A DNA stretch of 64,000 nt from NCBI GenBank assembly GCA_025786725.1, contig JAHLTZ010000019.1:248001-312000 (forward strand). Reading direction: 5' to 3'. The notes beneath the pieces were generated by a model. The model was not told where the DNA came from. It ran no database searches and saw nothing but the letters and a program-made list of their open reading frames with translations. The position numbers were made by a program, and so were the translations under genes. This DNA is from Syncephalis fuscata S228 (Eukaryota; Fungi; Zoopagomycota). Position 1 is the stretch's first letter, and each line of letters opens with the position of its first letter. Below are positions 219 to 61,580 of this stretch, piece after piece.

Positions 219-1375
219 ATAATATGAAATATAATAGTAATATTATATCATTATATCATTAATATAATAATATAAATAACATTGTTAATGATATCGTTTA
301 TTTATTAATTAATTGATTATACTATAGTACCAATAAACGATAGTAGTTAGCAATTTAACACTATTGTTTATATTTGTTCAAATATACATATATCTTGGCA
401 TATATTAGCATATAGTTTGTATTTTTTTAAAGCTGTTGTATTCGTTAGTCTACTATGTATTGTCGTTGCAGATCGTGCTACAACATATTATAGAATACCA
501 GCAGTATCAAATTACACTGTTACTGCTGAGATTACATATGCTATTGCCAAATGATCTGTAATAACGATTCATAGCAAAAATAAAGCATAAATGAGATTTT
601 ACAGAATATATTTAGAATAACGTAAAAACAAAACCAGAAATGCACTTATCGTGTCAATAAAGTTGCCAAAAGCAATGATCGGAGTAATGAAGGTCAGATT
701 ACAAAAGAGCAATGCAAGTACATAGTGTAAATAGTGTTTGTACATAACTAGTAGTCAGTCAACTACTGACACTATTTAGATGGTATATATGGAGTGTACA
801 AGTATATGCAATGGATATATGCTATCAAGTGTGAAGAAAGAGAAAGGGAAATGTGATGACGTAGATTGTGAGATGTGAGCCTGTCAGTCAATATTTATAG
901 ACAGATGAGTTAATTGATTAATAAATGGAGTGTAAATAATAAAAGTCAATCTACCCAACATGTCGGTACATCATAGAACAACAAGTAAAGCAATAATGCA
1001 TTAAGAATAAAAGTCATTTGACACCAAAACTACTCATTATCATAGAACATATATTCAGTATACTAACAAATATAATAAAATATAATAAGTCATTTACACC
1101 CAAAAAAACACTCATTATTATAGAACGTAGTTTCAGTATAATGGCGAATGTATTAAAAGAATAAAAGTCATTTGACACCAAAAACCATTAAAATGAAACA
1201 TGTTATTTTTATTGCATTGTATAAAGTAGAACAATGGTTTATATACTAAATAAAAAAGAATTACAATACTGATTCATAATAGACAAGTAATTGACCAACA
1301 GAAAATATACAGCCATCTAAATATTTAAAATGATTAGTATAATGGTTTGTTTGATTGCTAATGAGTACTTACCTT

Positions 1376-3677
1376 TTAATAAAATGGATATTTTTTGAGG
1401 CGGGCCTGTCGGAAAGGCTGCACGCGCTTCGCCGTAGCTTGCACCTTCGGCTTGATAGGGCGCGGACAATTTGGTTGTTGTCGTGAAGGTTTTGGTACCA
1501 GCTGCCGTTGCTTTTTCGCAACTGGTGCCGCCTCCACGGCTGTTGCCACTGTTGCTGCTGGCACCACTGGCGCTACTTCGCCAGTAAACCAGGAACAGGC
1601 CTGCGCCTGCTCGGCTGTAGGCCGAATGTCACTGTTGACATTCAGCAACTGCTTCATTAAGTGAACAGCTGCGAACTATTAGTTATGGTTAATAAAGACA
1701 TGTTTAACTTACCTTGTTCACTTGGCTCGTTTGCTTGTCCGCAGCCAAACGTAACCGAAGATTGAAGTACCTTCTTCATGTACCTCTCCACAATGCCAGT
1801 GTAGCCGTAGGGGCAATTGTCTAAAGATTGGTATATGATAGTTAGTATTGCACTTTGGTTTTGTTTGCACTTACCGAAAAACATTTCGTATAGAGTCGCC
1901 CCTAGACTCCACATGTCGGCCGGCTTCCCACAGCCATCGGCACCCAGCAATGCTGGAGTTAACCGACTTTTGAGAAGTGGGTCTCTGCTTATGATCGAAA
2001 GCAAAGACTCGCGCTTGTCGGTCCCAAATAGCACCTCTGGTGCCATGTAGGAAACTGTGCCACCACAAGTGTACACAGCTGAGGACGAGCGCAAGATATG
2101 CGCTAGCCCAAAGTCGGTGTAAACGACTTTGACGTCCTCCCGACCCTCTAGCATTAAGATGTTGCTAGGCTATTTAGATGTTAATAGTGATTTTAATATT
2201 AAATAAACTGCTTACTTTGATATCTATTAATAATAGTAATAGCAATAATAACGACAATTAGTAGTTGCATTAATAAATACATTAATGCCTTACCTCGATG
2301 GATAATGTTTTTACTGTGAAGGAACTAATAAAGCGTTAGTGTTTAATTAGTATTTTATAGTGATAATATCTACCTCAATTCCTTCAAGCAATTGTTTAAA
2401 GATATTTTTTATTTCCATCTCTGGAAGCGACTTGTGATGCTGGATGTAATGTTCTAAATTACCACCCGCCACGTACTGAAGAATTAAGTACGTATTGGTG
2501 GGGGTAATTTCGTTTCCCAACATCTTTATAACGCGTGGATGGTTGCCCACACGTTTCATAGCGGCAACTTCGTTTTTAAAGCTGCGGATACTACCAACAG
2601 CTGACGAAATTTTGACCGCGACGCGCTCGCGCGTCCTACGGTCCCGCCCCAAACGAACGGTACCAAAAGCGCCCCTATTGCAAACAATTGATTAGTTATT
2701 TAACTAGTTTGCTTAATTCAAATACTTACCGTCCAATGATTTCTGCAGTAATCATATAGCGCGAACCAACTCTCTGTAATAATAATAAACGTGGTATGTT
2801 AGCACTATTTAACTATATTTGTAAACTTACCTGTCGAAAAAGAGAGCTATTCTCGATCAGGGTAGGTGCAGTGTATTTAATTAAATAAACGATAAATACA
2901 GCTGTTATAAATTGTTAGAAATGATAATGCTGTATGACTATTACTTACTGTCACTGCCAGGGATTTCAATAAGACAATCCCGGCAACTCGCGTGGATTCA
3001 CCAGCGCGCAGCTCAACACCATTGACTAAACTAAATGTTAACAGTTTACTCATTACTCTTTATTTGAACTAACCTATTAGCACTGACAGTTTAGTGTTCT
3101 AAACTGATGATTAGTAATAAAAATTTTAACTGGTTATTTGCCTACCTTGCAATTAATGGTGTCATATTGCTATTTTAATTCATACTTAGTATTTACTTAT
3201 TAAAATCTATATTTTACCTACCACTAGAAATTGGAAGCAATACTTAGACATGAGCTTAGAATTAAACTGATAGTCGCTATGCAACATACACATACACAAT
3301 TTTAGTTCTCTGATATATGTATATTGTCGCTAAATAGTTACCACTGTATATCGGATCCAACGAGGAATTTTTTAGTGCCAACCAATCTAATTCCTAAATA
3401 AAACCATTTAGCTAAACATATATACTCAGTATCAGTTCGACGTACCTTCATAGTCTGGGTCGTAAATTTCAACCCAGGCCTTAGTGGATTCGTGCTGCTC
3501 CGTACTCAAATCATTCCAGCAATCTGGAACGTTCGAGTATGCCAAATCTTCATCATGTAGAAGACTTGGCGCCAGTTCAGTAAAAGCTGCAGTTGCAGCA
3601 GAAGTGGCAGAACGCGACGTAGAAATGATCGCGTTAGGTAGCGGACTAAAAGCTTGTTCGTCCTTAGAACAGGTCAT
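1376..3677 (-). CDS. FHA-domain Ser/Thr protein kinase (Cds1/Dun1/Mek1-like), about 12 exons
   Basis: Spliced motifs IGRGAFGTV, VAVK, HRDIKPSN, DFG, GTVSYMAPE, DMWSLG and RPTAEQA. N-terminal small exons read FLVGSDIQCD...VNGV (FHA-like). TATATAAAA lies at about 3961-3969. The frame is uncertain in the FHA part. Confidence 0.8.
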
Positions 3678-4699
3678 GATGGATAAAGGCGTTAATACAA
3701 ATGAGAAAATAAACAATTCTTCAAGTGAAAGTGAAGGTTCAAGTAGAGTGATAGCATAAAGTAAAGTGAAAAGATTCAACGCGTTATTTAATTAATAAAT
3801 TTAAAGACACACAATAATACAATATTAGTCAGTATTGAAGATAATATAACAATAGTATACTTTATTGTACAATTAATAGCATTATACTTGTAGTATGTTC
3901 TGCTTACTGATGCTATAGCTCAGTCCTAAGCTGTATGGCAAACTATTGTGCATATCGGTATTTTATATAGTCACTTGGCAAGCATGCATGTGCCACACAT
4001 ACTGGTTTTCATGTTGGCCTTTGCAGTCAATATGGTTACGTGTTTATTCCTGTTTTTACTTCATAGCTTTAACGGACTTTGTAATGTAATATGAACAACG
4101 TGTATTTTATTTCTATTTAGTAGCATTGAAACTCAATCGGTGAATTATGTTATAGACCATATTTCTAAAGAAAAGTAGTCATTTTTATTTAACTAATACA
4201 GTAATAAATTGTGTGGATCGATTAATCTAATTGTGTGCGAATGGCAAGAATACTTGGGGAAAGCAAAAATACCCGCTAGACCCTGAAAATATTGATAGCA
4301 TCGGAAAGAGCCGCTATTATAGTGGTACAACTGATTAAGAATGGTTGCATTTGGCTATGTTTCAGTTGTATTGGCCAATTGATTCAACTAGCCAGTGTAG
4401 ATATGCTGATTATGCGCGGAAATGACCGGCAAATGGAAGGCAAAAAGTGAGCAAATATGGAAATAAGGAAGGGATTATAATCCAATTTACTGATAAGATG
4501 GTATCTGCATTAGAAGGTTTCAGTCAGTTGCAATACGCCAATGAACAGTTGCCACATACTATTTACCAATATTGTCCATTCTAATTGGTAGATATGTTTT
4601 GGGCAATTTTATAAGGCTGTGTTGAGATTACTTTTGCTCATTACCTCGCCTTCTTCTGTTTCTAGTTGTTAATGTGCTGTAAACGCTTGTTAATGGAAG

Positions 4700-5270
4700 C
4701 ATCTGTTCTAGTAGTTACATCCAGTGGTGTGTGGTCCCTTGTTGGTTGATCACGATATACTGTGTTCTTACTTGTGAGCTGTGTTGAATGTGCAATACAG
4801 TATTTGCAGACTGCTGTTTATACTGGCTCAACAATTATATGACTGCCCGTAATAGGCGGCTGTATACTAGTGTAGTGCGGAGATATGTGGGATGCTGGAG
4901 CGTGCAGTAATAGGGCATAAGTCGGTATTGCTGCACGCTCTCTCATGGGGGCGCTAGGGCGACAGTATTAGACTAATATCGCTCTATGCCCCTCCTGTAA
5001 AGGCTAGAGCATGCAGTAACAGTATTTAGCAAGTCAGTTATTGCTGCGTGTTTCCTTCATATGGATGCGGCGATCTGTAATGGGTGGCCATATGTTAGTG
5101 CTCACCTGTTTGTAACGCGCGCTGGAGGTGTGTTGGTAGTGTTCAACTTGCTGAACACTGCAATCACGCACTAGATTGGTGTGATATGTGAATGCCTGTA
5201 ATAGATGGACATATATTGTACTGTTTATTTGTGGGTGTTGTTGAATGAATCACAGTATAGTAGCGGTCTC
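4700..5270 (+). other. Cluster of tandem stem-loops (candidate structured RNA or ssDNA element)
   Basis: At least 8 consecutive hairpins, e.g. GAGCGTGCAGTAATA/TATTGCTGCACGCTC (about 4898-4941), 4947-4993, 5007-5052, 5113-5134, 5139-5159 and 5163-5185. Confidence 0.55.
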
Positions 5271-6394
5271 AAATATCCTTTAATGCTCTACCGCCGTCGT
5301 AAAGTGTGCAAAGGTAGTGAATCTCTATAGGTTTAGCAACCGAACGTTAAATGGTATTCTGCGGCTGGTTACGACGTGGCAAAGACTGCACTATATTGTG
5401 ATCTCATAATGACATATCAGCATATGGCATGTGTTGTTTAGTTGTAGTATGTTGTAGTACTCATATGTGTTGGCTTTACACACTAACTACAAATGGGTGA
5501 ATCCGTAGTTTAGTGCTGCTTATTGCTTCACTTGAATTACTACATTATATTATAACATATTAAACAACATCATCATCCTGATGGTGATTAATATAAGCTA
5601 TGTGCATCTGACAAATGTTACTTACGCCCAAGTCGTAGTACTGTCGGTACTCCTGGTGGACGCATAGTTTCTATATTAAATGCTATCTTGATTAGCAACT
5701 TTCAACAACATTTTAATTTATTTATTGTATTGTATAACAACTAGTAATAATATTAAACAAAAAACAACCATGCTATATGTACACTATAAACTATACACGA
5801 ACAACAATCAATTAGGTGTAGGCACTTTATAATACTAAACAATACTAACAAACATTTGTTATAGTCATTCAAACATTGGTATCGGGACGACAAATATATC
5901 CGGATTGCACTTTTCATCATTCGCCAGCATTTTTGCATGTGGCTTACAATACCAATTATCGCCTTTATTGGTACAAGTATCAATAGTAGTACTATGTATT
6001 GCTGTTAATGCTATCACTTGACGTGGTTTTCCAACTGGTGGGAATATGTATTCATTTGGTTTTTTATCCAGCCAAGTGTTAGCTGGTATTATTGCGCACT
6101 TTAATTGTGTTAGTTAAATAAACAAAGTGGCAGTGGTGGCAAAGAGGGAGTTATGTATATTAAACTAAAATAATCCCAATAAAGTGTATAATGTGTTTAG
6201 TGAGACGACATAATATTGTAGTGTTAACTCTGTTACTGTTGTTTATAGTTTATCGTACTTTTGAAATTCGAGTTGCATTATATTTGCTTAATTAAAAAGC
6301 TATTGGCATGTAGATAACTAGAATAAATACACTAGATACGACTATCACTACACTGTTTATTTAAACAATTTATTAGCAATTTAATATGATTTGA

Positions 6395-6785
6395 TAGTCA
6401 AATGACTATAATCGATAGCATTATTCTATTGAACATAGAACTGGGCGGTGAGTGACATCAATAATCAAAATAATCACTATCACTATCCTGTATTCATATA
6501 TCTTCTATCTATTTATATAAATATTATATGTCAATCATATTTTGTTTTTATAGACTTGAGCACACTTTATTAATTGTAATCACACACTCTTCATTATTTA
6601 TTTATTCTACTATATATTATTTAATGACTAATTGAAATTGCTCTAATTCAAACTATTGTTTGTTTAGTAATAGCTCTATACATTGGAAATTTATACTTAT
6701 TTTATTTATTAACTTAAATTATCAAACTCACTATTCCATTTTATCTTCAATAAAACGGGTGGTTAGTTTAATTGCACAAATATTG
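6395..6785. mobile_element. Degenerate MITE-like unit of the dispersed module family
   Basis: + module (TAGTCAAATGACTA...CTATTGAACAT...GGTGAGTGACATCAAT) at 6396-6480 and an inverted module end (TTCAATAAAACGGGTGGTTAGTTTAATTGCACAAATATT) at about 6746-6784. Confidence 0.5.
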
Positions 6786-7506
6786 CCTATACTCATTTGA
6801 TTCCTAAATCATGTTAAATTACGTTGCAATTTTGCTTTTAAGAGTTTTAACTTAATGGCCAAGCAGCACCATATTCTAGCATTATTGCATGGTGTTGGAC
6901 TTGCTACTTGTTAACGATTACCTTAATGTTCAGAATAAAACATGTTGGTGAGTCAATATTGATTTAGTAATAATAATTTAGATATAATAAACGGAATAGC
7001 TTGCATGATACTATGAGTAATAAAGTAAAACTAGAAATCAAGTATATTTTATTGATACTAAATAAGGCTACTGCTTTGTAGTAGGCATAACTAATAGTAA
7101 AACCAAATGCTTGGTATTACACCATCAATGCAATGTTATTAGTCCGTAAAAACAAGTATTTACTGGTTATATTATTGTAATAATTTTTTATTTTTAGTAG
7201 TCGGTGCTGATATCCAATAGTGTATTATTCTTATGATCAATCATATGTGCTCTTAACAAACCACTCAACAACACAGTGTAATGCTTGGTTGTATTTCATA
7301 ACAATACAATCATCATATGGTTGTAATACTTTATTTTTAATAGCTATCACCGCAGTAAAATGACGACATGGCACTAGTTTATAAATTTAAATATAAAAAT
7401 TATTGCATTAATGCCACGATAGTATGCACCAATATTGAAAGAGTACTTTTAATGTAATTAGATGACATGACTTAATGTATGTAAGTTAAAAAACAATAGT
7501 AGTTGT

Positions 7507-9266
7507 TTAACTAATAAACTGTTGACAATAATATGTATAACTTTACGTATAATAAAGCAGATCGCCTAATATTTTGCACAAGTACGCGTATAACATATAA
7601 ATGATTATTGGCAATGTAATGATTTTGATAATACGCTAATAAATGTCTAAAAATAACAGTTTTTTTACCATTTATGGCTTACATAAATAAAATACAGCAA
7701 AATGATTGCCAGATTTGAGTTATCCATGCTAGTTATACAAATTGGCATAAAAAATAAAACAATGATTTTTGCAACAAAAGTTGACCAAAAATACAAATTA
7801 CGTATGTTTAATTTACTTAGTAAAACATTGATAATATTACGTATAACTTTACATATAATCAAGTAAATTGTCTGATACTTTGTACAGTTATGCATATGAC
7901 ATATAGATGGCTATTGGCAAAGTATACCGCTATTGTGTTGTGTGATGATGTAGTAATTGTAGTAATACGCTAATAAATGTACAAAAATAGCAGTTTTTTA
8001 TCATTCATGCCCATATAATTAAAATACGGCAAAATGATTATTGGATTCAAGTTCTCCATGCTAGTTATACTGACTAGTATGATTTATAGAACAATGATTT
8101 TTGCACAAAATGTTAGTCAAAAATACAGTTACGTATGTTTAATTTACTTAGTAAAACATTGATAATATTACGTATAACTTTACTATAATCAAGTAAATTG
8201 TCTGATATTTTGTACAGTTATGCATATGACATATAGATGCTATTGGCAAAGTATACCGCTATTGTGTTGTGTGATGATGTAGTAATTGTAGTAATACGCT
8301 AATAAATGTACAAAAATAGCAGTTTTTTATCATTCATGCCCTATATAATTAAAATACGGCAAAATGATTATTGGATTCAGTTCTCCATGCTTAGTTATAC
8401 TGATTGGTATGATTTATAGAACAATGATTTTTTGCAAAAAATGTTGGCCAAAAATGTAATTTATGTAATATTTGTTAACAAAACTTTACTTTATATATAT
8501 GACATAAATTGCCATCATACATTAATGTTTATGCATATTAAGCTGCTGTTGTGCTTATTTTATTGCTGTGAATGCTTAGATTTACTTTATATCATTTTTC
8601 ACCTTTAATCGTTTTTATGTTAACAAATAATTACATAAATTACATTTTTGGCCAACATTTTTTTGCAAAAAATCATTGTTCTATAAATCATACCAATCAG
8701 TATAACTAAGCATGGAGAACTCGAATCCAATAATCATTTTGCCGTATTTTAATTATATAGGGCATGAATGATAAAAAACTGCTATTTTTGTACATTTATT
8801 AGCGTATTACTACAATTACTACATCATCACACAACACAATAGCGGTATACTTTGCCAATAGCCATCTATATGTCATATGCATAACTGTACAAAGTATCAG
8901 ACAATTTACTTGATTATATGTAAAGTTATACGTAATATTATCAATGTTTTACTAAGTAAATTAAACATACGTAATTTGTATTTTTGGTCAACTTTTGTTG
9001 CAAAAATCATTGTTTTATTTTTTATGCCAATTTGTATAACTAGCATGGATAACTCAAATCTGGCAATCATTTTGCTGTATTTTATTTATGTAAGTCATAA
9101 ATGGTAAAAAAAACTGTTATTTTTAGACATTTATTAGCGTATTATCAAAATCATTACATTGCCAATAATCATTTATATGTTATACACATACTTATGCAAA
9201 ATATTAGGCGATCTGCTTTATTATACGTAAAGTTATACATATTATTGTCAACAGTTTATTAGTTAA
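7507..9266. repeat. Foldback palindrome made of about 330-bp tandem subunits (3 forward, 2 inverted, spacer about 140 bp)
   Basis: About 7507-8480 matches the reverse complement of about 8618-9266. ORFs 7665-7895(-) and 8877-9107(+) translate identically. The internal unit repeats at about 7820 and 8150. Confidence 0.9.
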
Positions 9267-10759
9267 ATAAGCACTATTTTTTTTACTTCAAATTCCATTG
9301 CATTTACCGTATTGTTACAGCTCTAACTAAAAGACTACAACTTAAATAACGAAGCAATACTTTATCCTACAATCTTAATTTCTGATACTTATTAAAGCTT
9401 ATCTTAACGCCCAAAATATATATGTTGATTGGTTGTATTGATTTATAATAAACTTATTGGTCATTAATCATCACAGTTTAACTATAATAAACTAAATAAC
9501 TTGTATGACACTGAGTAGAAATAAGATTGAACTAGAAACGATCATTTTCTTTATTGATACTAATAAAAATATTGCTTTTACTATTTGATCATCAATGTAG
9601 CATATCAGTTCGTGTGACTCCTCATATGTGCACAAATAACAAGTCGTCACTCATTATATTTTCGTAATAATCATTTGTTGTTAATAATCAATGTCAATAT
9701 TCCATATACATTATTCTTGCTATCCATTGCATATAACTTTAACACATCATCCAAAAAAATGTAATGTATTTCTTAGTCACACTTTTACAATACTTTATTC
9801 ATGAGATGAAAATAGTAACGATATAAGCATTAATGTTTATGCTGATAAATGTTTTTATTATAAAAATGCATCATAATTTTTACAATAAACTATATACACG
9901 TAGTGCTTTCATGTATTTATTGGCTGTATTTTTGGTGTGCATTTTTGTTGTAAATAATTACAATGCAATAAGTATGTACGCAATATATTAATATTTAATG
10001 AGACTGAACCATTGACATGCTCCTCCAAACATATTCTACAATAACTACAATGATGGCATATGTCACAGTATGCAGATAAAACTTTGTATAATTATTACAC
10101 TGTATTATATACAAACTGCATTGTTCTGATACTCTATTGTGTTGTATTTATTGTTGGATAAATAATTATTTTATTAATAAAAAGCAATACTTCCTCTTTT
10201 ACGCAACTTCTTAATTGTATTTTCTTTTCAAGTTTTGTATTTAATTATACCATTTCTACTTGATGTTAAATTATTATGCAATGCTTGAATTGCTAGTGCA
10301 AGCAAGAAAGGCGCATCTGTAGATGACGTTGACAAATCACGTGGTAATGAAAGACACCGCAATACATCTGGAGAAGCTAGCCTTTTTTAAAGCCATTTAA
10401 TCTATTTATAAAAATACAACTAAGTCAGAAGCGCAACAACAATATGATAAAACGGTAAGATTTATTGAAAGGGTAGGGCATTCAATGAATAGCTGCCAAA
10501 AACATTCTAGCGTAAAAAATGTCTTCGACAGGCTTTTGAAGATGAATACGACAAAGCTAATTCACACTGTATTTGGTTTCAAAGCACATTGAAGATATTC
10601 CTTACGTCAGTTCGTTTCTAACATTTAATCATAAATATTTCTTTATTCACACTATCGAATAAAGTTTAATTTTATAATTGATACAACATGAGTTTATGAT
10701 AACAAAATAACTAATAAATAATTTATTAACAGTTTAATATGGCTTGGATGCAAATTTTA

Positions 10760-11976
10760 TTAATATCTGCGCAATTGAGCTAACATCCGCTTTATGAACA
10801 TGAAATCAAGTAACAAGTGACACCAGTTATTGCAACATTACATGTAGTGTAATTTGAGTTCAAATTACTTTTCTTTAGTAATATTCGCGTAACTGAATCA
10901 GCATTATTGTTGATGAACATGAAACTGAATGGTGAATGGCATTAAAGTTTAAAATGCTTATTATGAATTTATTATTTAATACATATATACATATATATCA
11001 TTCTCAATATGTCCCACACTACTATATATTATTTTACGATATACTAAACACATTCTATTGTTTATATGTTCCGATATACTTTACTCATTTCTCTCATTCC
11101 GTTATATGCACTATAACCTCAACACCGATTATCATACACTTTCCATTGTATATTTATTCTAATGCATATTATTTCATGCTTGCATAATCTTTCTCTATCC
11201 AAAACTATTTTTATTTTGCTCTGGCTTTATCCTTAATAAATGTCGACTAATTCCACTCATTGATCATGCATATCTACTCAATAACTTCAACATTGCTAAT
11301 TACTGTTCAATATTGTACATTCGTTATATTGCATATCATTTTATTGGTTATTAAATATGCACTAGTTATTGCAGTTGTCCGTTTGGTTCTAGCACTGTTA
11401 TTAATAAATCTTAACTCATTCACCTCATTCATTTAGCAAGCTATATGTAATTAAAACCTATAACAATAAAATATGTCTATTAGGTCAAGAATGGCTTATA
11501 GCAGTATGTGTATACAATAGGGATGATATATATGAATAGAGAGTATATGCATACTGAACAACAAATCTACGATGGTGAGTATTTGATAATTAACGTCACT
11601 CACCATCCATCATCATGTTCAATACATTGGATGTGTAGTTCAAATGTACAAATACCATTAAATATAGTCATTTAACACCAATCATAGTATAGTTAAATAA
11701 TTTACTATTCAATAAAACTCACCACTTGGTCCCATGTTCAATAGATTGAGTGTCTAGTTTAATTGCGCGGATATTATCAAGTACAGTTATTAGATTACTA
11801 CTATTGAATGGCATGCTATTATTTATGTGACTGGCACTGCCACATAATTATCTTTCTCTGCCTTCTGTATTCTTATACTTTTTGTTCTGTCGTCGCTTTT
11901 GTGGCCATTCTTACATATATCACATTAATTAAATAGTATTTATTTTATTCATGTTTTATTTAGCTTATATTTTAAT
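10760..11976. mobile_element. Dispersed repeat / MITE-like element with nested inverted modules
   Basis: + modules at about 10763 and 10885; - modules at about 11545-11680 and 11716-11775. 11084-11976 is a near-identical inverted copy of 23431-24321, and its first part is a direct copy of 49238-49779. Confidence 0.85.
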
Positions 11977-12191
11977 TCGGTTTAGCAAAATAAGAAAAAA
12001 TACTAATACTGTATTGATTCACTTTAGTTGCACTGCCCTTTTCTTTTCTAAAGATAACCAATGCGAAATGGGTTGGGTTTTATTTAAAAGCTAGACAAAG
12101 ATGATGCAATAATGCCAACGGCTTCGATTGCTTATGATGATAAAGTAATTAAGGAAATAGCAGGACATGATGAATAGCGCACAAAGGATGC

Positions 12192-27646: not shown

Positions 27647-28012
27647 TAAATAATGTTAATTATTAATAATCTGTTTGCTGTATATCGCTAATTATCCTAA
27701 TTATAAAATTATATAACAATGCATTATTTTGCTAAATGATCTGCTCACTGTTGCACTGTATCATTTAGATGACTATTTGTAAATACAAATAAATATACTA
27801 TAATTGCTTATTCAATATTCAATATTTCAACACAAAGCATAAACATGACTAACTGTCAACATAGCTTTACTTACAAGCAGCTAATTTAATAGCACATCTG
27901 CTCTACTGTATTTCTATAAATAAAACTATATATAATACGACTAATTTATAGGAGAAATAGAAATTTATGTGACATATAATGTACATGATCAAGCATTTGA
28001 TAATAAGAAAAA

Positions 28013-30841: not shown

Positions 30842-30913
30842 GGGGGATTGGCGCAATGGTAGCGCGTTCGTCTCCAAAGCGAAAGGTTGTGTGTTCGAAT
30901 CACTCATTCCCCA
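30842..30913 (+). tRNA. tRNA-Trp (CCA), intronless
   Basis: Cloverleaf with acceptor GGGGGAT/ATTCCCC, D-stem GCGC/GCGC, anticodon arm TTCGT-CTCCAAA-GCGAA and T-loop TTCGAAT; an oligo-T terminator follows. Confidence 0.93.
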
Positions 30914-39680: not shown

Positions 39681-39870
39681 AGTAAAAAAGGTTATTAGAA
39701 TTTTACAATGCTTGAATATAGTAAATTGAAATGTTGAAATGTTTCACTTGAATAATTTATTAATAATTAACATCATTTAGTGTTAAATGACTATTTTAAT
39801 AACATTTAATTTATTAAATATAATAATGAGTGGTGAATGACATCAATCATCAAAATACTCATTATTGTAG

Positions 39871-40174
39871 GGGGGAGGCGTGGTGGCCTAAACGGTCAAC
39901 GCGTCTTCCCTAAAGTAGGAAAATGTTGGTTCGCCTAGTTCGAATCTTGTTTTCAGGAAATGCGTGATGGGATCCTTCCGTAGAAGAAATGGTCGATATT
40001 CCAACACGTGAGGAGAGCCACCAACGGTTTCAGTTGTAGATGGCAGGTTCTGCGTTGCGCGCGGATAGGTTCGAAATGAACCGTCTATTCTCCTAGGGGT
40101 GGCAGACAAATGCTGCAAATGCGCGGTTAGGTCCTACGGACCGTTGTCTCACTTAAGCTAATAAATTCAAATTC
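39871..40174 (+). mobile_element. tRNA-derived SINE (about 304 bp) with 18-bp TSD
   Basis: A-box TGGCCTAAACGG, B-box GTTCGAATC, 3' hairpin GGTCC-TAC-GGACC and an (AAATTC)2 tail. Flanked by the direct repeat AAATACTCATTATTGTAG at 39853-39870 and 40175-40192. Confidence 0.88.
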
Positions 40175-41372
40175 AAATACTCATTATTGTAGATTTATTA
40201 TTTGGTATACATATATACTCTATTCACAAATATTATTCCTATTGTATGTTCATTCTACTATATTATTTAATCATACTGATCGGATTTTATTCCAATATTG
40301 TTATTCGTTTGCTGCTAACTCTACTTAAAAGTTTTGAACTATTTTTTTATTGGGCTATACACATTATAAATTCAGCTCCGTTGTTCATACGTTTTACTTG
40401 TTGCTCTAGTTTATTTCGCATTATTCTACACTCTAGTACCCACACACTATTCAAAGCTAGTGCTTGCTTGGCTCTAGCTTTATTAGCTGTAAACCACAAC
40501 TCATTCCACTCGCCGCATTGTCATTTACATTATAGCTCCATTACAAGTAATCACACACTTTCATCTGTTTACTCCTAGTGTTTTATACTATCCTATAATT
40601 CAATATATAAATTTATTATGCAATAGTTTTCTGTTAGTCAGTGTTAGCACGTGGTATCTTATGCATCGGATTGTTTAATCACTATGCTTTATTGCATAAA
40701 GTAAGACCAGGTTTACTAATACTATTTTTCATTATGACGATAGCATATTTATATTAATTGCTGTTGTAACATTTTATAAACTTTATTGTTAATTATAAGA
40801 TTGATTGATTAGCTAGTTTTGTAATAATAAACCACTTATTAAATAATTTAAATCTTACCTAGTCTTTTTGACAATTCACCGCATTTATATGCAGATTCAG
40901 CATATATTTAATACAATAAATAACACCAACATTCGTCACATTTCAATAAGCATATGCATTTGTATGCTTAGCATATTACAAATAGAATGAATTAGACTGT
41001 AGTTGTGCGAGTCCTGTTTTTTCTTGTGTTTTACGTCACTTATTTCTTGTTGTGATTGCGTCCGGACCGCGGGTACGAATGGCGATATAAATACAGTAAT
41101 ACGCGCATTTAATAACAACGAGCAACGCTTCCTTTCCGCTATTCTTACGCGATTTAGTTACCGATAGTATACCTTTTATTGTATGCTAAGTCTTTACAAA
41201 GGAACTCTTTACTCATATAGTCCGTTACTCGTACACGGTGTTTATCTAGTATCTCCGCTCACCTCCGTTGTACTCACAACTGCCGTGAAGTCCTACTTGT
41301 ATTTGAACAAAGTACCACACTCGTCAGTCTACCTGCTGCGTAATACTCATATCAAAGCCATTTTTAGTTAAA

Positions 41373-43383
41373 ATGGCGTTGAACAGTGACAATGATCGTA
41401 TTTGGAAGAATGTTGATGTTTTATTATATCTGCGCAACTTTATGGATGACAAAAAATTGGTACTACTTGCCAAGAGTTGCCGTTTCATTCATCAAATAAT
41501 AACTGGCCAGTCTTATATCTGGAAACGGCGATATATGCAAAATTATTGCTTAGGCGATAAACGCAAACAAGAATGGCTTTTATGGTTTATCTGGTGCACA
41601 AATACTACAGCAAACGCAAGCATGCTTACGCCCAGTATAAACATAAAGAAACAAAAACGTTCATTATTGTCTAAAACTACAACAATTAATAATAGCGATG
41701 ATGAGGCTACGTTGTCTGTTAATGATTGCTTGTTAACTCCTGGCTTTGATACCGTCAAATGGTACTGTGCGTTTCAACGTCGCAAACAGACCAGCTACGA
41801 CTTGATGGCTAGCCGATTCAATGAGCGAAGCTACCAATTGCCAGTTGATGAGCGTGCGGAACTAGGAATAGTCAGCACAAACCCATGGAACACATTAGTA
41901 TATGATAACAGAACACCAAAAATATGGCTAATTTATCATGTTGTTCGTGAAGAAGAACGTGAACATGATAGCGAGGCAATAATCGGAGAAGAATTGATTA
42001 GCACTTTAGCATTACATGATAGCACGCCTTGCGTGGATTCTATTCATGGAACAAGTCGATTTGTTGTGGCCAGCATTTCATTGATGGTATGTGGAGATGC
42101 AAAACCAATTTATATCGGTGATCCAGTAGGTAAGTACTAATGATCAACACTAATAATTGTAGCAAACATTTATTAACACCAATAATAATAGTGGAATGGC
42201 CTAAAGCAGAAGTGCAGCGCGACACAGAAAATGAGTCTGCAGAAGCTGTTGCATTAGCGACCTTTGCATTTTTTGAAAAGCTAAAATTTGGCACACGAAC
42301 TGCTATTATAGTATGGCTATTGATAATAGCTCACCTCCAAACATTATCTATCGTACTGGCGGTATTCAAGAAGGAGAATGCACAGCATTTTGGCCAGAAT
42401 TAATCGATACTTGTGGCGGCTGGTTACTTTTTCGCAAACGCAATATAAAAATAGCACCGCGTTGCCAATTGTATTTGTATAATTGTAACGAAAGTCAATG
42501 GATAGAAGTTTCATCGTCTAATTTTCTTTCATCCGGTTCGATTCAGTTTGCTTGCCGTAACCAATGTCAATCGTTAAAGTTTTCAATAGCATGTAAATTT
42601 ATGGAAGCTAGCGACGCTTCTACGTCCACTGCTGTACAAGATTTGAAAACTGTTGGCAGCGACGACCAATTAATAAGTATCAAATGGAAACTATTTGATT
42701 TCCAAACGGTCTAATCTAAATGTGGACCAATATCATCGGGCCAGTTCTACCTCCCATACTGTCCAAACGCCATTACCAAATCTGTGATGTATACGAATAG
42801 AATGAGCTTAGTTATTCTATATGACTTAACTGATGAAGAACACAAAATCCACAATGGAACGTCTAATGCCTCACTCTCTTTATTTGCATTAAAAAGACCA
42901 TCACGCGATGGCTCGCTGCAACATTCATTCGACGCTGGAAATTATAATCAACTATTGCCAATTGATAGTTCTGAACAAGGACACATATTATGGACTCGAG
43001 TTATCCACAACAATACCGTTACACCGCTATACAGCGAGAAACTGATCGTCGTTCGAGATGCTAGAAAATATAATATACTGGATGCTTGAAACGGAAATAT
43101 ATTGCGTTCAATTGCTTGTCCAAGCCATTCAAAGTTTATTCCTTTGCTTGGATCTTTGTGCGCGGTATTCAACAAAAAATCTGGAAAAAACTACCTTATT
43201 GATATGCACGCTGGCAGTATTTGCATACCATCAGCACGTCCTGCTAGAGAACAAACAGGAGATGGACATTTGCTATTCTCAAATCGCAATATATATTTCG
43301 AGTATTTTGACTATTATGCATCAAGTGTTGCTGTTAGTCGAGTCGGCTTATATAATGGAGCATACAAAGCATATATGCTATAA
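41373..43383 (+). pseudogene. Lineage-specific F-box-like gene, disrupted
   Basis: N-terminal F-box-like DVLLYLRNFMDDKKLVLLAKSCRFIHQI...IWK; intron 42130-42191; frameshift near 42313; in-frame TAA 42712-42714 and TGA 43087-43089; TATA box near 41085. Confidence 0.7.
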
Positions 43384-43603
43384 ATAAAGCTGTAGCTGCA
43401 AGCATTTAATACAAACCATTTTATATTCCATTTATTCTTTATGCCTTTTATTAGCAATTTACTAAACCATTTAATAAATTTTGGTGTTAAATGACTACAT
43501 TTAATAATATTTGTACATTTAAGCTAACATTTGTTCTATCAGAAATGGTGATGGTGGTGAATGATATTAAAAAACAAATGATCGTAGTTGATGTTTTGTT
43601 TTG

Positions 43604-46600
43604 GTGTTAAATGACTATTTTTAATAACATCCAATCTATTGAACGTGTAGCTAAGTGGTGAATGACATCAATTATCAAATACTCATCATTGTAGATTTAT
43701 TATTCAGTATGCATATATCCAGTATACATATATTTTCTATTCATCTATATCATTCTCATTATATCCTACACTACTATATATCATTCTATTCCATACTAAA
43801 CACATTCTATTGTTTATATACTTTAGTGTACTTTACTCATTCTACTCATTATGCTATACGCACTATAACCTTAACATGGTTATATGCTTTCTTATCGTAC
43901 ATTTATCATTTTATATATTATTCTGTCCGCATACAGTCTTCTTTTATCCAAAACTGCTTTTATTTTTGTTTTAGCTTTATCCTTAATAAATGTCGACTAA
44001 TTCTGCTCATCTGTTCATGCATACATGCTCAATAACTTCAACATTGCTAATCGTACACTTTTCCTTGTATATTCATTCTATTCTATGTCGTTTTATTGTA
44101 TAGTAAATACGCGCTACTCAAGCTATTGCCTGTTTATCGCTAGCCTTATTCGTTGTAAATATCAACTCATTTTATTTTTCCATACATGCACATTATAGCT
44201 TTATCACTCACACTCACACTCCTCTTGCTGTTCATTCAGCTTGTCTTATATCATTGTATACTCTGCTGGCTACATTCTATTAAACCCTGTTGCTAATTTG
44301 TTGTTAGTCTTATTGGTTATAAATCTTGAATCACGTAGCTATAAATTCAACACAGCCATTTATGTTTTCCTTGTTACTTTATAGTATTATCAGTTCTAAT
44401 AATGGTGCGTTACATTTAGAGACTGTCTGTTTATTGTTATCTGCATTATTTGCACAACTCAATTCATTTTACTCATAGACTTAATACAAATGATTTTAAT
44501 ATTATTTATGGAATACTTTATAACTATTTAAATAGGATAGCTAAGTATAGAATCACTAGCACTGCAGTTGTAGATATTACTGATCATTTTATTACTACTT
44601 TTAATTACATCAAATAAACTTGATAAATTACAACGTATTTTAAAACTTTGAAATCTATTGCATTAGTGCTTGTCATAAACTACTGGCTAGATACCGATGC
44701 CATTTAATTATGTTATGGCTATATAAATGGTCAGCATTGCTTTAAAATAAAGTCATAATTGATATTACTGAATAAACAGAGCTACTTGCTATGCTATATG
44801 TAAAGTTTAGTGTAAATCATTTTTACGCTTAATTGGTTAAATCGTGTAACCTAGATTTAATCCATCAGTTTATCGCACTGTAAAGATCTTGCTGATATTA
44901 GTGTTTGGCTAATATGGTGGATAGTAGCAAAGATTCTTTATACAATAGGTGAGCAGAGTGCTTTTTAGACAAGAAGATAAATGGCTTAGCGCATACTAAA
45001 CTAACAGGTACGTATACTAAGATTCCTACTAGAGTGATGATGGCCATTTATATGGAAGACTACGAGTAATTACGTAGTATATTGGTCATATATGGTTTCA
45101 GGTGACTCATGTTTTATTACGACATTTTCCGCTATTGCCGCAGTATATAAGCAGACTTTACCACTCCTCTAAACCAGCATTGCCTTTTTATCTTCTCTTT
45201 CTACTCTTTACCACTGGACATACGCTACACTCATTCGCTCTTACTGTCATTAGTTGTTTAATATGCTTTGCACTCGCTGGACGTCTAATGATTACAGGAT
45301 CGCTGCTGCTCATTATTTGGCATATTTAAGATAAGTAAACTAGTGTGTGCGCAGTGTAATACAGTCACTCTGTTAGCTATGTTGAACATCGAGAGATATA
45401 TAGTCAACTAGACACTATATGATTTTGCGGATGCATTCCAGCATGCTGCGAACGGTGTTAGATCACACTTAGCTGATTAGACTTCTGAATAGCGAATATG
45501 GTTATTGCTATGTGTTTGCCTGTTGTAATTGCATTGATGGTATTTGGGAGTATATGCAATATATAGTCTCTGCTTGGAGATATCACCTGTGCTAAATTCA
45601 ATATGGAAGTGGTGATAAAGCTATGTTGTTTATACAGCTTCCGCTATCTGGAACTTGCATGAAAGTGCATAGGATTTATACAATACAACGTATACAAACT
45701 GCCTCCATGATCATGCAGGGAATAGTAGTGATGGGTGCAGTTGGTTGAATAGTTTATGCGCGCTAGTAGTCTTGGTCATGCTCACTGCAGAAGGCAAAGG
45801 AACTTGTGTTTTGTGGCTATGACCAACAGCTGTTCTGAATTCATATCAGTGTAATTGCTCAACAAACATTATTGCGGCGGTTAATTTGCATGCTAGTTTA
45901 CTTATTTTAACTGATATAGATCCAAAAAATAGTTAAATTCAGCAAGAACAAGGCCACAATGCGCCACTAGTTACTTGGTTTGTATTATTATATTAGTGTT
46001 ATGTAATTTTGTCAACTAAATAAAGGTAACGTTTTCTTTTGCAAATATTAACATATTACAATCAATTGTATTCAATACAACTACATCATACTAAATATTT
46101 AAATAAAATACAAGTGCTTTATTTTGCTAATTAAATTAAATATTTCTATTACTGCTATTTAATAATTTATTAATATTTAATGTGATTTAGTGGTCAAATG
46201 ACTGTATTTGATAATATTTATACATTTAAGTTAAACTTTCTTGCTATTGAACATGACGATGGGTGGTGAGTGACGTCAATCATCAAGTACTCATCAGTGT
46301 ATATTATTATCCAGTATGCATATATCCTCTATTCACCTATATCATTCCATTATATCCTACACTACTATATATCATCGTATGATATACTAAACACATTCTA
46401 TTGTTTATATGTTCCAATATACTTTACTCATTCCACTCATTGCGTTATATGCACTACAACTTTAATATTGTTTTATATGCTTTCTTACTGTATATTTATT
46501 CCGCTTTATATCATTCTATAGTATAACGTCAATATGTTACTTGGAACTGTTGTTTGTTTGATTACCAATAATAAATATTTTTATTAATTTGCTTACGCAT

Positions 46601-49600
46601 ATATGTGCTGTGTAACTATTTGATAGACAAATCAGTTGGTGTAAATTGGTATGGCTTTGGTACCGATTGAGCAGAATGATGAGTTGGTGAGTATGTAAGC
46701 GAGAAGAAAGCCAGAGATAAAAGAGTGTGAACAGTAATAACATAGTACTGCAGCAATGATATATGCGTACTAGATAATGAATACACAGAATAAATATTTT
46801 AATAATTGTTACTATTTAGCATTCAGCTTCATGTTCAATAAAACGGAATGTAGTTAGTTACGCGAAAGATGCTTGGCACATAATGCTGACACATAATGCT
46901 TAGCGCAAATGCTGGCACATAATGCTTAGCGCAAATGCTGGCACATAATGCTTAGCGCAAATGCTGGCACATAATGCTTAGCGCAAATGCTGGCACATAA
47001 TGCTTAGCACAAATGCTGGCACATAATGCTTAGCACAAATGCTGGCACATAATGCTTAGCAGCAAATGCTGGCACATAATGCTTAGCGCAAATGCTGGCA
47101 CATAATGCTTAGCGCAAATGCTGGCACATAATGCTTAGCGCAAATGCTGGCACATAATGCTTAGCACAAATGCTGGCACATAATGCTTAGCGCAAATGCT
47201 GGCACATAATGCTTAGCGCAAATGCTGGCACATAATGCTTAGCACAAATGCTGGCACATAATGCTTAGCGCAAATGCTGGCACATAATGCTTAGCGCAAA
47301 TGCTGGCACATAATGCTTAGCACAAATGCTGGCACATAATGCTTAGCGCAAATGCTGGCACATAATGCTTAGCGCAAATGCTGGCACATAATGCTTAGCA
47401 CAAATGCTGGCACATAATGCTTAGCGCAAATGCTGGCACATAATGCTTAGCACAAATGCTGGCACATAATGCTTAGCGCAAATGCTGGCACATAATGCTT
47501 AGCGCAAATGCTGGCACATAATGCTTAGCGCAAATGCTGGCACATAATGCTTAGCGCAAATGCTGGCACATAATGCTTAGCGCAAATGCTGGCACATAAT
47601 GCTTAGCGCAAATGCTGGCACATAATGCTTAGCGCAAATGCTGGCACATAATGCTTAGCGCAAATGCTGGCACATAATGCTTAGCGCAAATGCTGGCACA
47701 TAATGCTTAGCGCAAATGCTGGCACATAATGCTTAGCGCAAATGCTGGCACATAATGCTTAGCGCAAATGCTGGCACATAATGCTTAGCGCAAATGCTGG
47801 CACATAATGCTTAGCGCAAATGCTGGCACATAATGCTTAGCGCAAATGCTGGCACATAATGCTTAGCGCAAATGCTGGCACATAATGCTTAGCGCAAATG
47901 CTGGCACATAATGCTTAGCACAAATGCTGGCACATAATGCTTAGCGCAAATGCTGGCACATAATGCTTAGCGCAAATGCTGGCACATAATGCTTAGCGCA
48001 AATGCTGGCACATAATGCTTAGCGCAAATGCTGGCACATAATGCTTAGCGCAAATGCTGGCACATAATACTTAGCGCAAATGTTGGCACATAATGCTTAG
48101 CGCAAATGCTGGCACATAATGCTTAGCGCAAATGCTGGCACATAATGCTTAGCACAAATGTTGGCACATAATGCTTAGCGCAAATGCTGGCACATAATGC
48201 TTAGCGCAAATGCTGGCACATAATACTTAGCGCAAATGTTGGCACATAATGCTTAGCGCAAATGCTGGCACATAATGCTTAGCACAAATGCTGGCACATA
48301 ATGCTTAGCGCAAATGCTGGCACATAATGCTTAGCGCAAATGCTGGCACATAATGCTTAGCGCAAATGCTGGCACATAATGCTTAGCGCAAATGCTGGCA
48401 CATAATGCTTAGCGCAAATGCTGGCACATAATGCTTAGCACAAATGCTGGCACATAATGCTTAGCGCAAATGCTGGCACATAATGCTTAGCGCAAATGCT
48501 GGCACATAATGCTTAGCGCAAATGCTGGCACATAATGCTTAGCGCAAATGCTGGCACATAATACTTAGCGCAAATGCTGGCACATAATGCTTAGCGCAAA
48601 TGCTGGCACATAATGCTTAGCGCAAATGCTGGCACATAATGCTTAGCGCAAATGCTGGCACATAATGCTTAGCGCAAATGCTGGCACATAATGCTTAGCG
48701 CAAATGCTGGCACATAATACTTAGCGCAAATGTTGGCACATAATGCTTAGCGCAAATGCTGGCACATAATGCTTAGCGCAAATGTTGGCACATAATGCTT
48801 AGCACAAATGTTGGCACATAATGCTTAGCACAAATGTTGGCACATAATGCTTAGCACAAATGCTGGCACATAATACTTAGCACAAATGTTGGCACATAAT
48901 GCTTAGCGCAAATGCTGGCACATAATACTTAGCACAAATGCTGGCACATAATGCTTAGCACAAATGCTGGCATATAATGCTTAGCACAAATGTTGGCACA
49001 TAATACTTAGCACAAATGCTGGCACATAATGCTTAGCACAAATGTTGGCACATAATGCTTAGCGCAAATGTTGGCACATAATGTTTAGCACAAATGCTGG
49101 CACATAATGCTTAGCACAAATGCTGGCACATAATGCTTAGCACAAATGCTGGCACATAATGCTTAGCACAAATGCTGGCACATAATGCTTAGCGCAAATG
49201 CTGGCACATAATGCTTAGCGCAAATGCTGACACAATGCTCATTTCCCTCATTCCGTTATATGCACTATAACCTCAACACCGATTATCATACACTTTCCAT
49301 TGTATATTTATTCTAATGCATATTATTTCATGCTTGCATAATCTTCCTTTATCCAAAACTATTTTTATTTTGTTCTGGCTTTATCCTTAATAAATGTCGA
49401 CTAATTCCACTCATTGATCATGCATATATACTCAATAACTTCAACATTGCTAATTACTGTTCAATATTGTATATTCGTTATATTGCATATCATTTTATTG
49501 GTTATTAAATATGCACTAGTTATTGCAGTTGTCCGTTTGGTTCTAGCACTGTTATTAATAAATCTTAACTCATTCACCTCATTCATTTAGCAAGTTATAT

Positions 49601-49779
49601 TTAGTTGAAACCTATAACAATAAAATATGTCTATTAGGTCAAGAATGGCTTATAGCAGTATGTGTATACAATAGGGATGATATATATGAATAGAGAGTAT
49701 ATGCATACTGAACAACAAATCTACGATGGTGAGTATTTGATAATTAACGTCACTCACCATCCATCATCATGTTCAATAG
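43604..49779 (+). mobile_element. Composite non-autonomous repeat (copy B) with an expanded internal satellite
   Basis: Inverted near-identical copy of 23780-27646. It begins with a + module and ends with a - module. Confidence 0.9.
46873..49238. repeat. 26-bp tandem satellite (GCTTAGCGCAAATGCTGGCACATAAT)n, about 90 copies
   Basis: Uninterrupted head-to-tail array of about 2.36 kb with few variants. Confidence 0.98.
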
Positions 49780-49925
49780 GTTGGGTGCTATTAAATAATT
49801 ATTTGGTCTTCAAATGGTAATAAATTATTGGTGAAGGGTAATGCGTAATTACCAAGTATGGTAGTATTAAATATGAAACAATACCAAAAACAATAACTAA
49901 AAACTACTACTTTTTTCTCCTTGCT

Positions 49926-59339: not shown

Positions 59340-59551
59340 TTTACTATTGTTATAATAATACTATTACTATTGCTATTGCTATTGTTACTATTATTATGAC
59401 CACAACTATGGCTATTATTTAATAACTAAACGGAATGAACGAAAGAGTAAAGAATAAAATGGGTAGTACGCGTCACGCCATACTTTCTAGCGTTAAAGCA
59501 GAGCCAATCAAAATACGCAAGTTAAAACCAATCAATTTATTGTATAGAATT

Positions 59552-61128: not shown

Positions 61129-61454
61129 GCCTCAATAGCGTTAGTGTTGTTTAAAAAAAATAAAAAAATAAAAAAATAATAACTAAATTTATTAATATAC
61201 TCAACAATAATTACTTATTTTTGGTGGTGAAATAGTTTTTATTATATTCACTAACAAACTACTGACAAACGTGTTCTATGATAGATATGATATATTGATA
61301 TGTTTAGATAAAATAAGTCAAAGCCTACAAGATAAAATAACGATTAACTATGTGGGATTACAGTGCATGTAACTCAATGAATAAAGTAAGTGAAATGTAT
61401 CAAAGCTTATAGCGAGAGGAACGTATTCAATATATAATGCAATGCTATATGTAT

Positions 61455-61580
61455 ATTGGATATATGCATACTGATAATAAATCTACGATGATGAGTATCT
61501 TAGACTTTGATGTCACTCACCACCCATCATTATGTTCAATAGATTAAATGTTATTAAAAATAGCCATTTAACACTAAATT
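61455..61580 (-). repeat. Solo copy of the dispersed module
   Basis: ATATGCATACTGATAATAAATCTACGATGATGAGTAT...GTCACTCACCACCCATCATTATGTTCAATAG...AGCCATTTAACACTA matches 27530-27646 and 49700-49779. Confidence 0.85.

Follow-up and report, generated by a model that had tools for sequence, protein, structure and literature searches.

The window, the whole 64,000-nucleotide stretch of Syncephalis fuscata S228 DNA analysed here, contains 17 matches to an HMM of a repeated module, which lies beside a kinase gene, an F-box-like gene, two non-coding transcription units and pairs of near-identical inverted arms. The features are given below by position and strand.

500–1000, minus: B tail, multi-copy (~77–87%), truncated here; fuller copies end in an inward-facing A module.
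1003–1184, minus: three cores of subfamily B, arranged as a 78-bp tandem subrepeat that lies 197 bp beyond the stop of the kinase.
1376–3677, minus: Ser/Thr kinase gene, CAMK/Chk2-like, 12 spliced introns, member of a dispersed family.
3900–4650, unstranded: conserved promoter block, likely bidirectional, with TATA-like boxes near 3965 (minus) and 4610 (plus); median identity 95%, 17 rows.
4685–5250, plus: folded RNA without an Rfam family, ~61 candidate copies; RNA contigs run on to ~5950.
6350–6512, plus: A module closing the RNA/kinase cassette.
11084–11972, minus: inverted arm 1a, tandem A modules at 11531–11793; 98.8% identical to 23434–24321.
23434–24321, plus: inverted arm 1b, tandem A modules at 23614–23874; with 1a it encloses a DEAD-box/Nramp block.
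24320–27650, minus: inverted arm 2a, made up of a module (27648), a non-coding unit and a module (25063); 99.25% identical to 43600–46926.
39735–40227, plus: A module that follows the SAP/RSB stop by 99 bp and is interrupted by a polymorphic SINE-like insertion (39871–40175).
41373–43387, plus: F-box-like gene with frameshifts in this assembly; weak Pfam match (E 0.045), family of ~160 matches.
43440–44180, plus: tandem A modules (43481, 43601), with ~450 bp of inner sequence specific to the family; the 43601 core is where the identity tract begins.
44700–46150, plus (strand inferred from the TATA box): second cassette, no conserved ORF, 64 candidate copies.
46145–46337, plus: A module closing the second cassette.
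46869–49234, unstranded: 26-bp satellite with 91 copies at this site; the partner arm has 2.
49241–49830, minus: A end facing inward, in which a diverged local module end runs on beyond 49787, where the 98% tract stops.
61449–61620, minus: single A module.

An inverted-repeat family that is abundant in the Syncephalis genome and diverged (~70–85%) has the module as its end repeat. Nine matches to RGTGTYAAATGAC at ≤1 mismatch were found in the window against 0.38 expected by chance, and the core or a variant of it differing by one to three bases is present at all 13 positions listed by the initial annotation. These 13 sites are not independent, because 11667/23724, 27634/43601 and 25049/46190 are partners in 98–99% identical inverted duplications. 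Across the 29.4 Mb genome the core occurs exactly 148 times (control 7) and CTATTGAACATG, the module's second motif, 801 times (control 9), and we estimate a copy number of ~1,900 modules, only 43% of which are recovered by an exact 12-mer. The core is palindromic, GTCA-AA-TGAC, with base variation between copies. The tail described as its usual companion, CTATTGAACATG-GGTGARTGAC, holds for A modules but not for the three cores at 1012–1166, which belong to subfamily B in its 78-bp tandem arrangement. Module units have T-rich flanks, subrepeats of 78–120 bp and long terminal inverted repeats, the arms of paired modules being symmetric and 120–310 bp long, and homology extends for ~600 bp at family-level identity. 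Predicted coding segments contain none of the 215 module hits. The module pattern had no match in viral contigs, and metagenomes gave one unrelated tandem repeat.

The modules had been thought to occur only in islands of lineage-specific genes, never in conserved blocks, and to accompany effector-like genes. Neither view survives, as a module follows the stop codon of the SAP/RSB gene (at 39680) by 99 bp and others lie after DEAD-box and DUF2045 genes; since housekeeping genes adjoin modules too, and further neighbours include chitin synthase, amidase, flavin reductase and ABC transporters, the module is not specific to effector-like genes. Among 122 neighbouring module pairs, the commonest arrangement is an inward-facing gene-less pair of 0.6–1.5 kb (42 pairs), followed by back-to-back pairs with genes between (28) and direct pairs around a gene (22). 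Module-bracketed, TATA-bearing units do recur, as first proposed, but the direct orientation around a gene accounts for only those 22 pairs. The expected orientation bias was found: gene 3′ ends are favoured over 5′ ends by 34 to 16 within 700 bp (null share 0.48, p = 0.007). The reported spacing of the core, about 100–200 bp past the stop codon, was likewise confirmed, with ~100 bp for the F-box-like gene and 197 bp for the kinase. At F-box family loci on contigs C1–C35, the exact motif was seen by eye just downstream in 2/8, with a 12-mer that detects 43% of modules.

The main cargo of the modules is a non-coding RNA together with a kinase. Units in which the folded RNA is paired with a divergent kinase have a same-strand module downstream in 27/32 rows, and the RNA recurs as cargo with or without the divergent kinase. 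This multi-copy RNA has a covarying fold of ~100 pairs and an apparently very high abundance. Run X1 was taken to be RNA on account of its spliced joints. Rfam 15 covariance models run on the whole window at E values up to 0.5 returned only a tRNA at 30842, leaving the folded RNA unmatched. The kinase promoters are 95% identical and their copies are mosaics of shared blocks, whereas the kinase proteins are mostly 39–57% identical; the cargo retains its introns. Reading by eye, we saw no obvious signal peptide in the kinase. An atlas score of 0.85 marks its N-terminus as FHA-like, which serves as a lead only, and a Pfam search of the kinase did not find FHA. The B tail folds no better than shuffled sequence (z −1.25).

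A second non-coding unit is bracketed by same-strand modules in 16/19 rows. Its copy in the window had been called a gene relic, but in the region 44200–46150 the homologues share no conserved ORF and Pfam gives nothing below E 0.02; it is instead a non-coding transcription unit, with a TATA-like box near 45143 and RNA contigs at 45187–45695 and 45666–46274. Its RNA folds no better than shuffles (z 0.26). A copy on C319 is near-identical until ~70 bp beyond the core and thereafter similar at family level, with the module kept at both loci. The F-box-like gene has a 95% copy on C2 that ends in the second downstream core; a protein search with its exon found nothing among longer proteins, which is weak evidence.

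Near-identical inverted arms of 0.5–7 kb are numerous in this genome, flank housekeeping blocks and often end within modules, although inverted pairs without any module also exist (the C2 arms). In 1.3 Mb of module-enriched DNA we recorded 67 rows of local near-identical pairs, and 39 of 109 scored tract ends lay in module DNA, which makes up 8.9% of the sequence, an enrichment inflated by the choice of regions for holding modules and by the non-independence of many rows. At 28 of the tract ends, both sites carry on in module sequence. The copied tracts are 96–100% identical and often end inside pre-existing diverged modules, in line with the original proposal of cassettes. In a four-way haplotype test, four substitutions were common to both arms of one haplotype (one on C339, three on C224) and two were crossed; haplotype-specific variants common to both arms are as gene conversion predicts. 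Arm-fixed differences lie near the tract edges (4/4) in two longer variable arms, and a 550-bp arm pair has six arm-fixed and no haplotype-shared sites. Assembly polishing could also have homogenised the arms. Three haplotig pairs (~100 kb) are colinear and show neither flip-flop inversion of arm-bracketed blocks nor the module presence/absence that had been anticipated at module boundaries, so that no event is seen under way in these pairs. Eight independent tract ends lie near a module start; four of them fall between −5 and 0 relative to the core, where a uniform distribution would place 11% (p ~0.008, computed by hand), and three fall at the edge of TTTATAAA. Other tract ends are scattered across the module, from −82 to +640. 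The clustering at the core and TTTATAAA fits the edge of homology, but also a site-specific cut.

No enzyme could be assigned to the module. Target-site duplications (TSDs) were absent in 38 units (longest shared word 7.13 versus 7.27 in the null) and no offset was significant in 30 units, whereas a MULE of the same genome carries a 9-bp TSD; age could have erased those of module units. Genome profile searches gave no match for Helitron Rep (PF14214, PF20209), hAT, Merlin, Tc1/DDE_3, Crypton NDC10_II or KDZ, with a positive control that worked for Merlin and DDE_3 only. Of the DNA transposase families, MULE alone was detected, with 15 matches. MULE terminal inverted repeats (TIRs) from 10 loci, and from wider flanks of several, have no motif in common with the module; among the 15 matches, C15, C259 and the context of one C319 copy were covered in part, and C69 within its short locus. 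Tyrosine recombinases gave six matches, all in long ORFs that overlap and none with module ends, and one type within ~145-bp inverted repeats is read as DIRS-like; two PIF1 loci lack the module in the fetched flanks. The search for autonomous elements with the same ends that the initial annotation proposed came back empty among the MULE, PIF1 and tyrosine-recombinase loci examined. Inward-facing module pairs of 4–7 kb were rejected as autonomous elements: they proved to be either palindromic arms or host genes, and 40 ORFs from them showed no transposase domain; in 184 further ORFs near modules the sole transposase was a MULE with other TIRs. Several other origins were discarded: a hAT-like 8-bp TSD at TTTATAAA was not significant; a SINE/TPRT origin, considered for the A-rich end of the reverse strand, is unsupported, with no TSD; a Penelope-like element with inverted pseudo-LTRs had a single GIY-YIG match, on a 2-kb contig, and no Rfam ribozyme in the window; and an LTR-like TRIM/LARD has direct repeats in its favour, but the ends are AT-rich, with no purine tract, no TSD and a primer-binding site judged by eye.

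On balance, we lean towards the modules being homology docks for ectopic conversion, as with wtf genes at 5S rDNA. When DNA breaks are repaired by copying from one module to another, whatever lies between or beside the modules would be carried along, and such copying would build module–cargo–module arrays and hold nearby inverted arms near-identical. The copier may be host recombination, acting by gene conversion or by circle pop-out and pop-in, and the family itself may descend from a TIR transposon that is now enzyme-less. Together with selection acting on the RNA and on its promoter, copying would keep the promoters of the kinases 95% identical as their proteins diverge. Spread by ordinary repair copying between modules, rather than by a dedicated enzyme, is likely.

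Membership of a Helitron/Helentron or Pack-MULE family, as put forward initially, is not supported by the data: no Rep-helicase was found, TSDs are lacking and the MULE TIRs are unrelated. A non-autonomous, one-ended Helentron-like family, in which a nick at the outer edge of the module, strand displacement and read-through would capture downstream DNA and tandem ends would give module–cargo arrays, the enzyme being lost or undetected, is possible but doubtful. Missing TSDs, T-rich flanks, an internal satellite and retained introns are consistent with it and match features of HINE elements in PMC4067079, and two near-identical pairs begin exactly at TTTATAAA with unrelated flanks. However, the arms of 120–310 bp are not 12–15 bp subTIRs, no 3′ stem-loop was recognised (five ends folded gave only weak AT-rich hairpins), PF14214 and PF20209 had no match (in a search with no working positive control for them), the two PIF1 loci had no module in the fetched flanks, and many tracts begin inside pre-existing modules. 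Pack-MULE-like composites, moved by cut-and-paste with cargo captured between long TIRs, would account for the arms, for the 78–120 bp tandem subrepeats and for MULE being the only transposase family seen; they are nevertheless unlikely, as the 38 and 30 units lack an 8–9 bp TSD, the examined MULE TIRs share no motif with the module yet carry a TSD, and tract ends are internal rather than at outer termini.

The sense-strand bias to gene 3′ ends raises the alternative of a cis-acting element under selection, for 3′-end formation or as an island boundary, that ordinary multigene duplicates carry along. Both RNA units point towards their downstream module, and one RNA contig of the second cassette terminates inside it at 46274, but 16/50 nearby modules face a gene 5′ end, the ~600 bp of homology is at family-level identity and the modules occur in clumps, 55 kb of C101 having none; we consider this explanation very unlikely. 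Least probable is an integron-style system in which a recombinase or nuclease cuts the palindromic core or the centre of TTTATAAA and integrates cassettes: it would explain the four of eight ends at the core, the F-box-like copy on C2 that likewise ends there and the inverted core 70 bp upstream in ~10/107 terminal modules, whereas tract ends lie mostly elsewhere, the core differs between copies, the recombinase link raised by the initial annotation fails at all six matches, and NDC10_II gave no match (again with no working positive control). It is tempting to speculate that a new kind of eukaryotic cassette system, in which a nuclease or recombinase would cut the palindromic core and load cassettes into about a thousand docks, has the folded RNA and the diversifying kinase as its payload, selfish or regulatory (e.g., a drive or recombination-control pair), but we regard this as rather unlikely.

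If the modules are indeed homology docks, a gene-dense, early-diverging fungal parasite of fungi with few detectable DNA transposases could scatter and diversify gene units via one repeat family. Whatever the mechanism, the genome holds a multi-copy, Rfam-less RNA with a covarying 100-pair fold and a kinase family in which conservation of the promoters far exceeds that of the proteins. Its housekeeping blocks are surrounded by many inverted arms of 99–100% identity, a compact natural setting in which to test gene conversion between arms. In the portions of the literature that a search returned, we found no paper on the dock repeats, multi-copy RNA, kinase family or inverted arms described here.

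MITEs and Pack-MULEs have inward-facing long terminal inverted repeats, subrepeats and captured intron-bearing genes, all of which are seen here too; unlike them, the modules have no TSD and no transposase with module ends, and copying tracts terminate within the repeats. Arm-to-arm gene conversion takes place in palindromes like those on the primate Y, with arms 99–100% identical and variants common to both. The near-identical inverted arms and shared variants found here are alike, but the arms are 0.5–7 kb, numerous, and have housekeeping genes in the spacer. With non-autonomous Helentrons of the HINE/DINE-1 type, as presented in PMC4067079, the modules share very high copy number, non-coding content, lack of TSD, T-rich flanks and internal tandem repeats, but differ in their long symmetric arms (against 12–15 bp subTIRs), with no 3′ stem-loop recognised and no autonomous partner found. 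The Drosophila Rsp-like satellite inserts into 1.688 clusters, with eccDNA as a possible route, and according to that study (PMC7403614) new material thereby enters pre-existing dispersed repeats via repair, as proposed here, although our cargo consists of 2–6 kb genes and transcription units rather than satellite monomers. The wtf genes of Schizosaccharomyces are dispersed at 5S rDNA or solo LTRs, with ectopic gene conversion or DNA circles proposed in PMC9562144. Here a non-coding inverted-repeat module takes the place of the rDNA or LTR as dock, and a kinase gene has as its partner a folded RNA that belongs to no known family. As with wtf (PMC9562144), a fast-diverging multigene family with a divergent partner transcript is tied to a dispersed repeat, and its members are flanked by that repeat (27/32 and 16/19 rows) and carry hallmarks of non-allelic gene conversion.

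Syncephalis fuscata is a mycoparasite, and the window (G000:C101:248001-312000, in an assembly of 29.4 Mb and 371 contigs) alternates AT-rich islands with intron-rich housekeeping blocks (DEAD-box, Nramp, DUF2045, SCAMP, SCP2, GH31 and SAP/RSB genes). C349, C357 and C336 carry a second, colinear haplotype for stretches of C101, C224 and C339, respectively. The features discussed here are as follows.

1376-3677 (-), kinase gene of cassette 1
4685-5250 (+), predicted folded RNA of cassette 1, on the promoter's far side from the kinase
7489-9284, 97% palindrome built of 330-bp subrepeats, Foldback-like
30842-30913 (+), tRNA gene between DUF2045 and SCAMP
39871-40175 (+), SINE-like insertion, 305 bp, GC-rich, with a 17-bp duplication
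44700-46150, cassette 2
46869-49234, 26-bp satellite

The initial annotation had named about 13 sites of a short core and proposed that they bracket effector-like genes as mobile cassettes. All 13 are present; recent inverted duplications link three pairs of them, and a 78-bp tandem repeat at 1012-1166 contains three more, which make up subfamily B. Allowing one mismatch, the window contains the core 9 times versus 0.38 by chance, and an HMM finds 17 module hits. Genome-wide, the exact core occurs 148 times (control 7) and exact CTATTGAACATG 801 times (control 9). Of 285 distinct HMM hits, 123 contain the 12-mer, a share that puts the total roughly at 1,900 modules, counting haplotigs and tandem subrepeats. 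Family A starts in AT-rich sequence ~45 bp upstream of the core, followed by the core and then the CTATTGAACATG and GGTGAGTGAC motifs; it is often repeated in tandem as a 120-bp subrepeat and reaches up to ~580 bp. The arrangement seen most often is two inward-facing modules spanning 0.6-1.5 kb, with arms of 120-310 bp. Some modules (46190-46290 in the window and other copies) carry a CRE-type site, TGACGTCA; in fission yeast, sites of this type act as hotspots of meiotic recombination. At G000:C318:103001-108900, A modules form an array alternating head-to-head with tail-to-tail at a period of 2.2 kb.

Orientation of 122 neighbouring module pairs in 1.3 Mb of module-enriched DNA
Inward-facing: 42 without a gene, 5 with a gene
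Back-to-back: 28 with genes between, 10 without
Direct: 22 with a gene, 15 without

None of 215 module hits in this DNA lies inside predicted coding sequence. The suspected orientation bias was borne out, as within 700 bp module starts face the 3' end of a gene in 34 cases and the 5' end in 16, more than the null share of 0.48 predicts (p=0.007). The proposed specificity for effector-like genes was not: since the neighbours mix chitin synthase, amidase, flavin reductase and ABC transporters with lineage-specific families, the module is a general island-end repeat and no marker of effector-like genes.

The segment 500-6400 is found again at at least 30 loci. Its predicted CAMK/Rad53/Chk2-like kinase gene matches proteins named Syncephalis fuscata, and 12 introns are spliced out of it in run X1, a data set read as RNA from spliced joints. 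Eight named paralogues share 39-57% identity, except for three pairs of near-duplicates (89-91%), yet just upstream of the kinase a 750-bp block reaches a median of 95% identity in 17 partly redundant rows. Copies of this block are made of mosaic pieces; in 2 of 17 rows the kinase is absent and the promoter joins B cores directly. The segment 4685-5250, across the promoter from the kinase, has a folding z of -5.3. Over 19 distinct copies 97.3% of cells are paired and two-sided changes occur at 22 of 100 pairs versus 11.3 +/- 2.1 in shuffles, values biased in the structure's favour because it was built from the very alignment scored. Many G-U changes suggest that the RNA lies on the + strand. 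In X1 the summed depth of contigs lies at 1.4-2.9e5 across 4694-5187, compared with 2-4e2 for housekeeping genes that are spliced; the figure adds up all copies and gauges expression poorly. The genome holds 61 candidates; an Rfam search gave no match, and as far as Rfam and literature searches go the family is undescribed. Of 32 rows with sufficient flank, 27 have a same-strand A module 1.5-1.8 kb downstream (~19 of 24 by hand, minus rows recognised as one place or haplotig), and one upstream is common, at -0.8 kb in the gene-free form or -4 to -6 kb in the kinase form.

Cassette 2 has 64 candidates genome-wide and, in 16 of 19 rows, modules of one strand on either side; four of the rows are the window's own pair and its haplotig, and many others resemble copies of one palindrome. 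It keeps a TATA-like box, and RNA contigs run from 45187 to 46274. Its description as a gene relic did not hold up: comparison of homologues revealed no conserved ORF, and a Pfam search gave nothing below E 0.02. The F-box-like gene (family of ~160 matches) is indeed bracketed in the window. A 95% copy on C2 extends from shortly before the ATG as far as the second core downstream, with no module detected upstream, and the bracket is therefore local. Recurring module-bracketed units survive from the original proposal, but without their effector-like specificity. Modules and cassette 2 also make up a palindrome of roughly 8 kb (G000:C26:15114-23023; arms 3.3 kb, 99.6%), which is flanked by G-rich tandem repeats, apparently recurs on many small contigs (C159, C206, C216, C220, C225, C313) and is possibly subtelomeric or centromeric. 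The SINE-like insertion is missing from haplotig C349, is folded (z -2.9) without an Rfam match and has a summed RNA contig depth >2e5; other copies lie within or adjoining A modules on C357, C168 and C212.

Inverted arms of 890 bp (98.8%), 3.3 kb (99.25%) and 550 bp (98%) surround housekeeping blocks in both haplotypes, and haplotig comparison detected no inversion at them. The satellite has 91 copies versus 2 in the partner arm and ~70 in the haplotig; C157 holds another 26-bp-period array between modules. Near-identical pairs are frequent (67 rows at ≥96% over 400 bp), and inverted pairs without any module also occur. In a biased, non-independent sample without rows dominated by the Foldback-like repeat or ends that coincide with sequence edges, module DNA, 8.9% of bases, contains 39 of 109 tract ends, and at 28 ends module sequence carries on at both sites. 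A four-way comparison of arms and haplotypes found 4 substitutions common to both arms of one haplotype and 2 crossed; arm-fixed sites in the longer arms lie near tract edges, and the 550-bp pair has 6 arm-fixed sites and 0 shared. In the C319 copy of cassette 2, near-identity gives way to family-level similarity ~70 bp past the core, with the module kept at both loci. The module-end enrichment, haplotype-shared variants and C319 switch are what non-allelic gene conversion would leave. At the start of its contig, G000:C319:1-29566 forms a 14.7-kb palindrome around a 178-bp spacer; this palindrome may be an assembly artefact.

We lean, with slightly better than even confidence, towards an old inverted-repeat family, now enzyme-less, whose modules would serve host recombination as docks; this recombination would copy cargo from site to site and make arms and promoters uniform. 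A one-ended rolling-circle family is unlikely; the module departs from defining features of Helentron/HINE elements (PMC4067079). It also departs from defining features of Pack-MULEs, and such an origin is improbable: two samples, of 38 and of 30 units, yielded no target-site duplication (TSD), and a MULE of the same genome has a 9-bp TSD and TIRs unrelated to the module. The initial attribution to either group is thus not upheld. MULEs are the sole DNA transposase family detected (15 matches); domain searches for Helitron, hAT, Merlin, Tc1, Crypton and KDZ came up empty, several of them lacking a control that worked, and turned up no autonomous element with module ends. Because the TIR of palindrome 7489-9284 also flanks the MULE transposase at C339:307853, the palindrome is likely a non-autonomous derivative.

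The 3'-end bias would suit a cis-element, a reading to which we give little credence. Least probable is a dedicated recombinase. Among 8 independent ends near the module start (a ninth, tandem-related row was set aside), 4 lie between -5 and 0 relative to the palindromic core, where 11% would be expected, and another 3 at the TTTATAAA edge, against an expected 21%. Tract ends are otherwise scattered along the module, and tyrosine-recombinase ORFs lack module ends. The edge of homology explains both clusters, but a cut at the core may also be at work. The tyrosine-recombinase elements (G000 C34, C201, C344, C90, C312, C314) fall into two families whose long ORFs overlap, one of them with inverted repeats of ~145 bp, and are read as probably DIRS-like. 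A family of ~500-aa ORFs, 34% identical and without a Pfam match, has members at G000:C26:6767-8275 and C35:468918-470456, and an A module follows each of them; the C26 copy forms the spacer between the arms of an inverted pair (5.9 kb, 99.4%).

The preferred copying between module docks would work like the dispersal of wtf to 5S rDNA and the spread of Rsp-like repeats into 1.688 clusters (PMC9562144 and PMC7403614, respectively).
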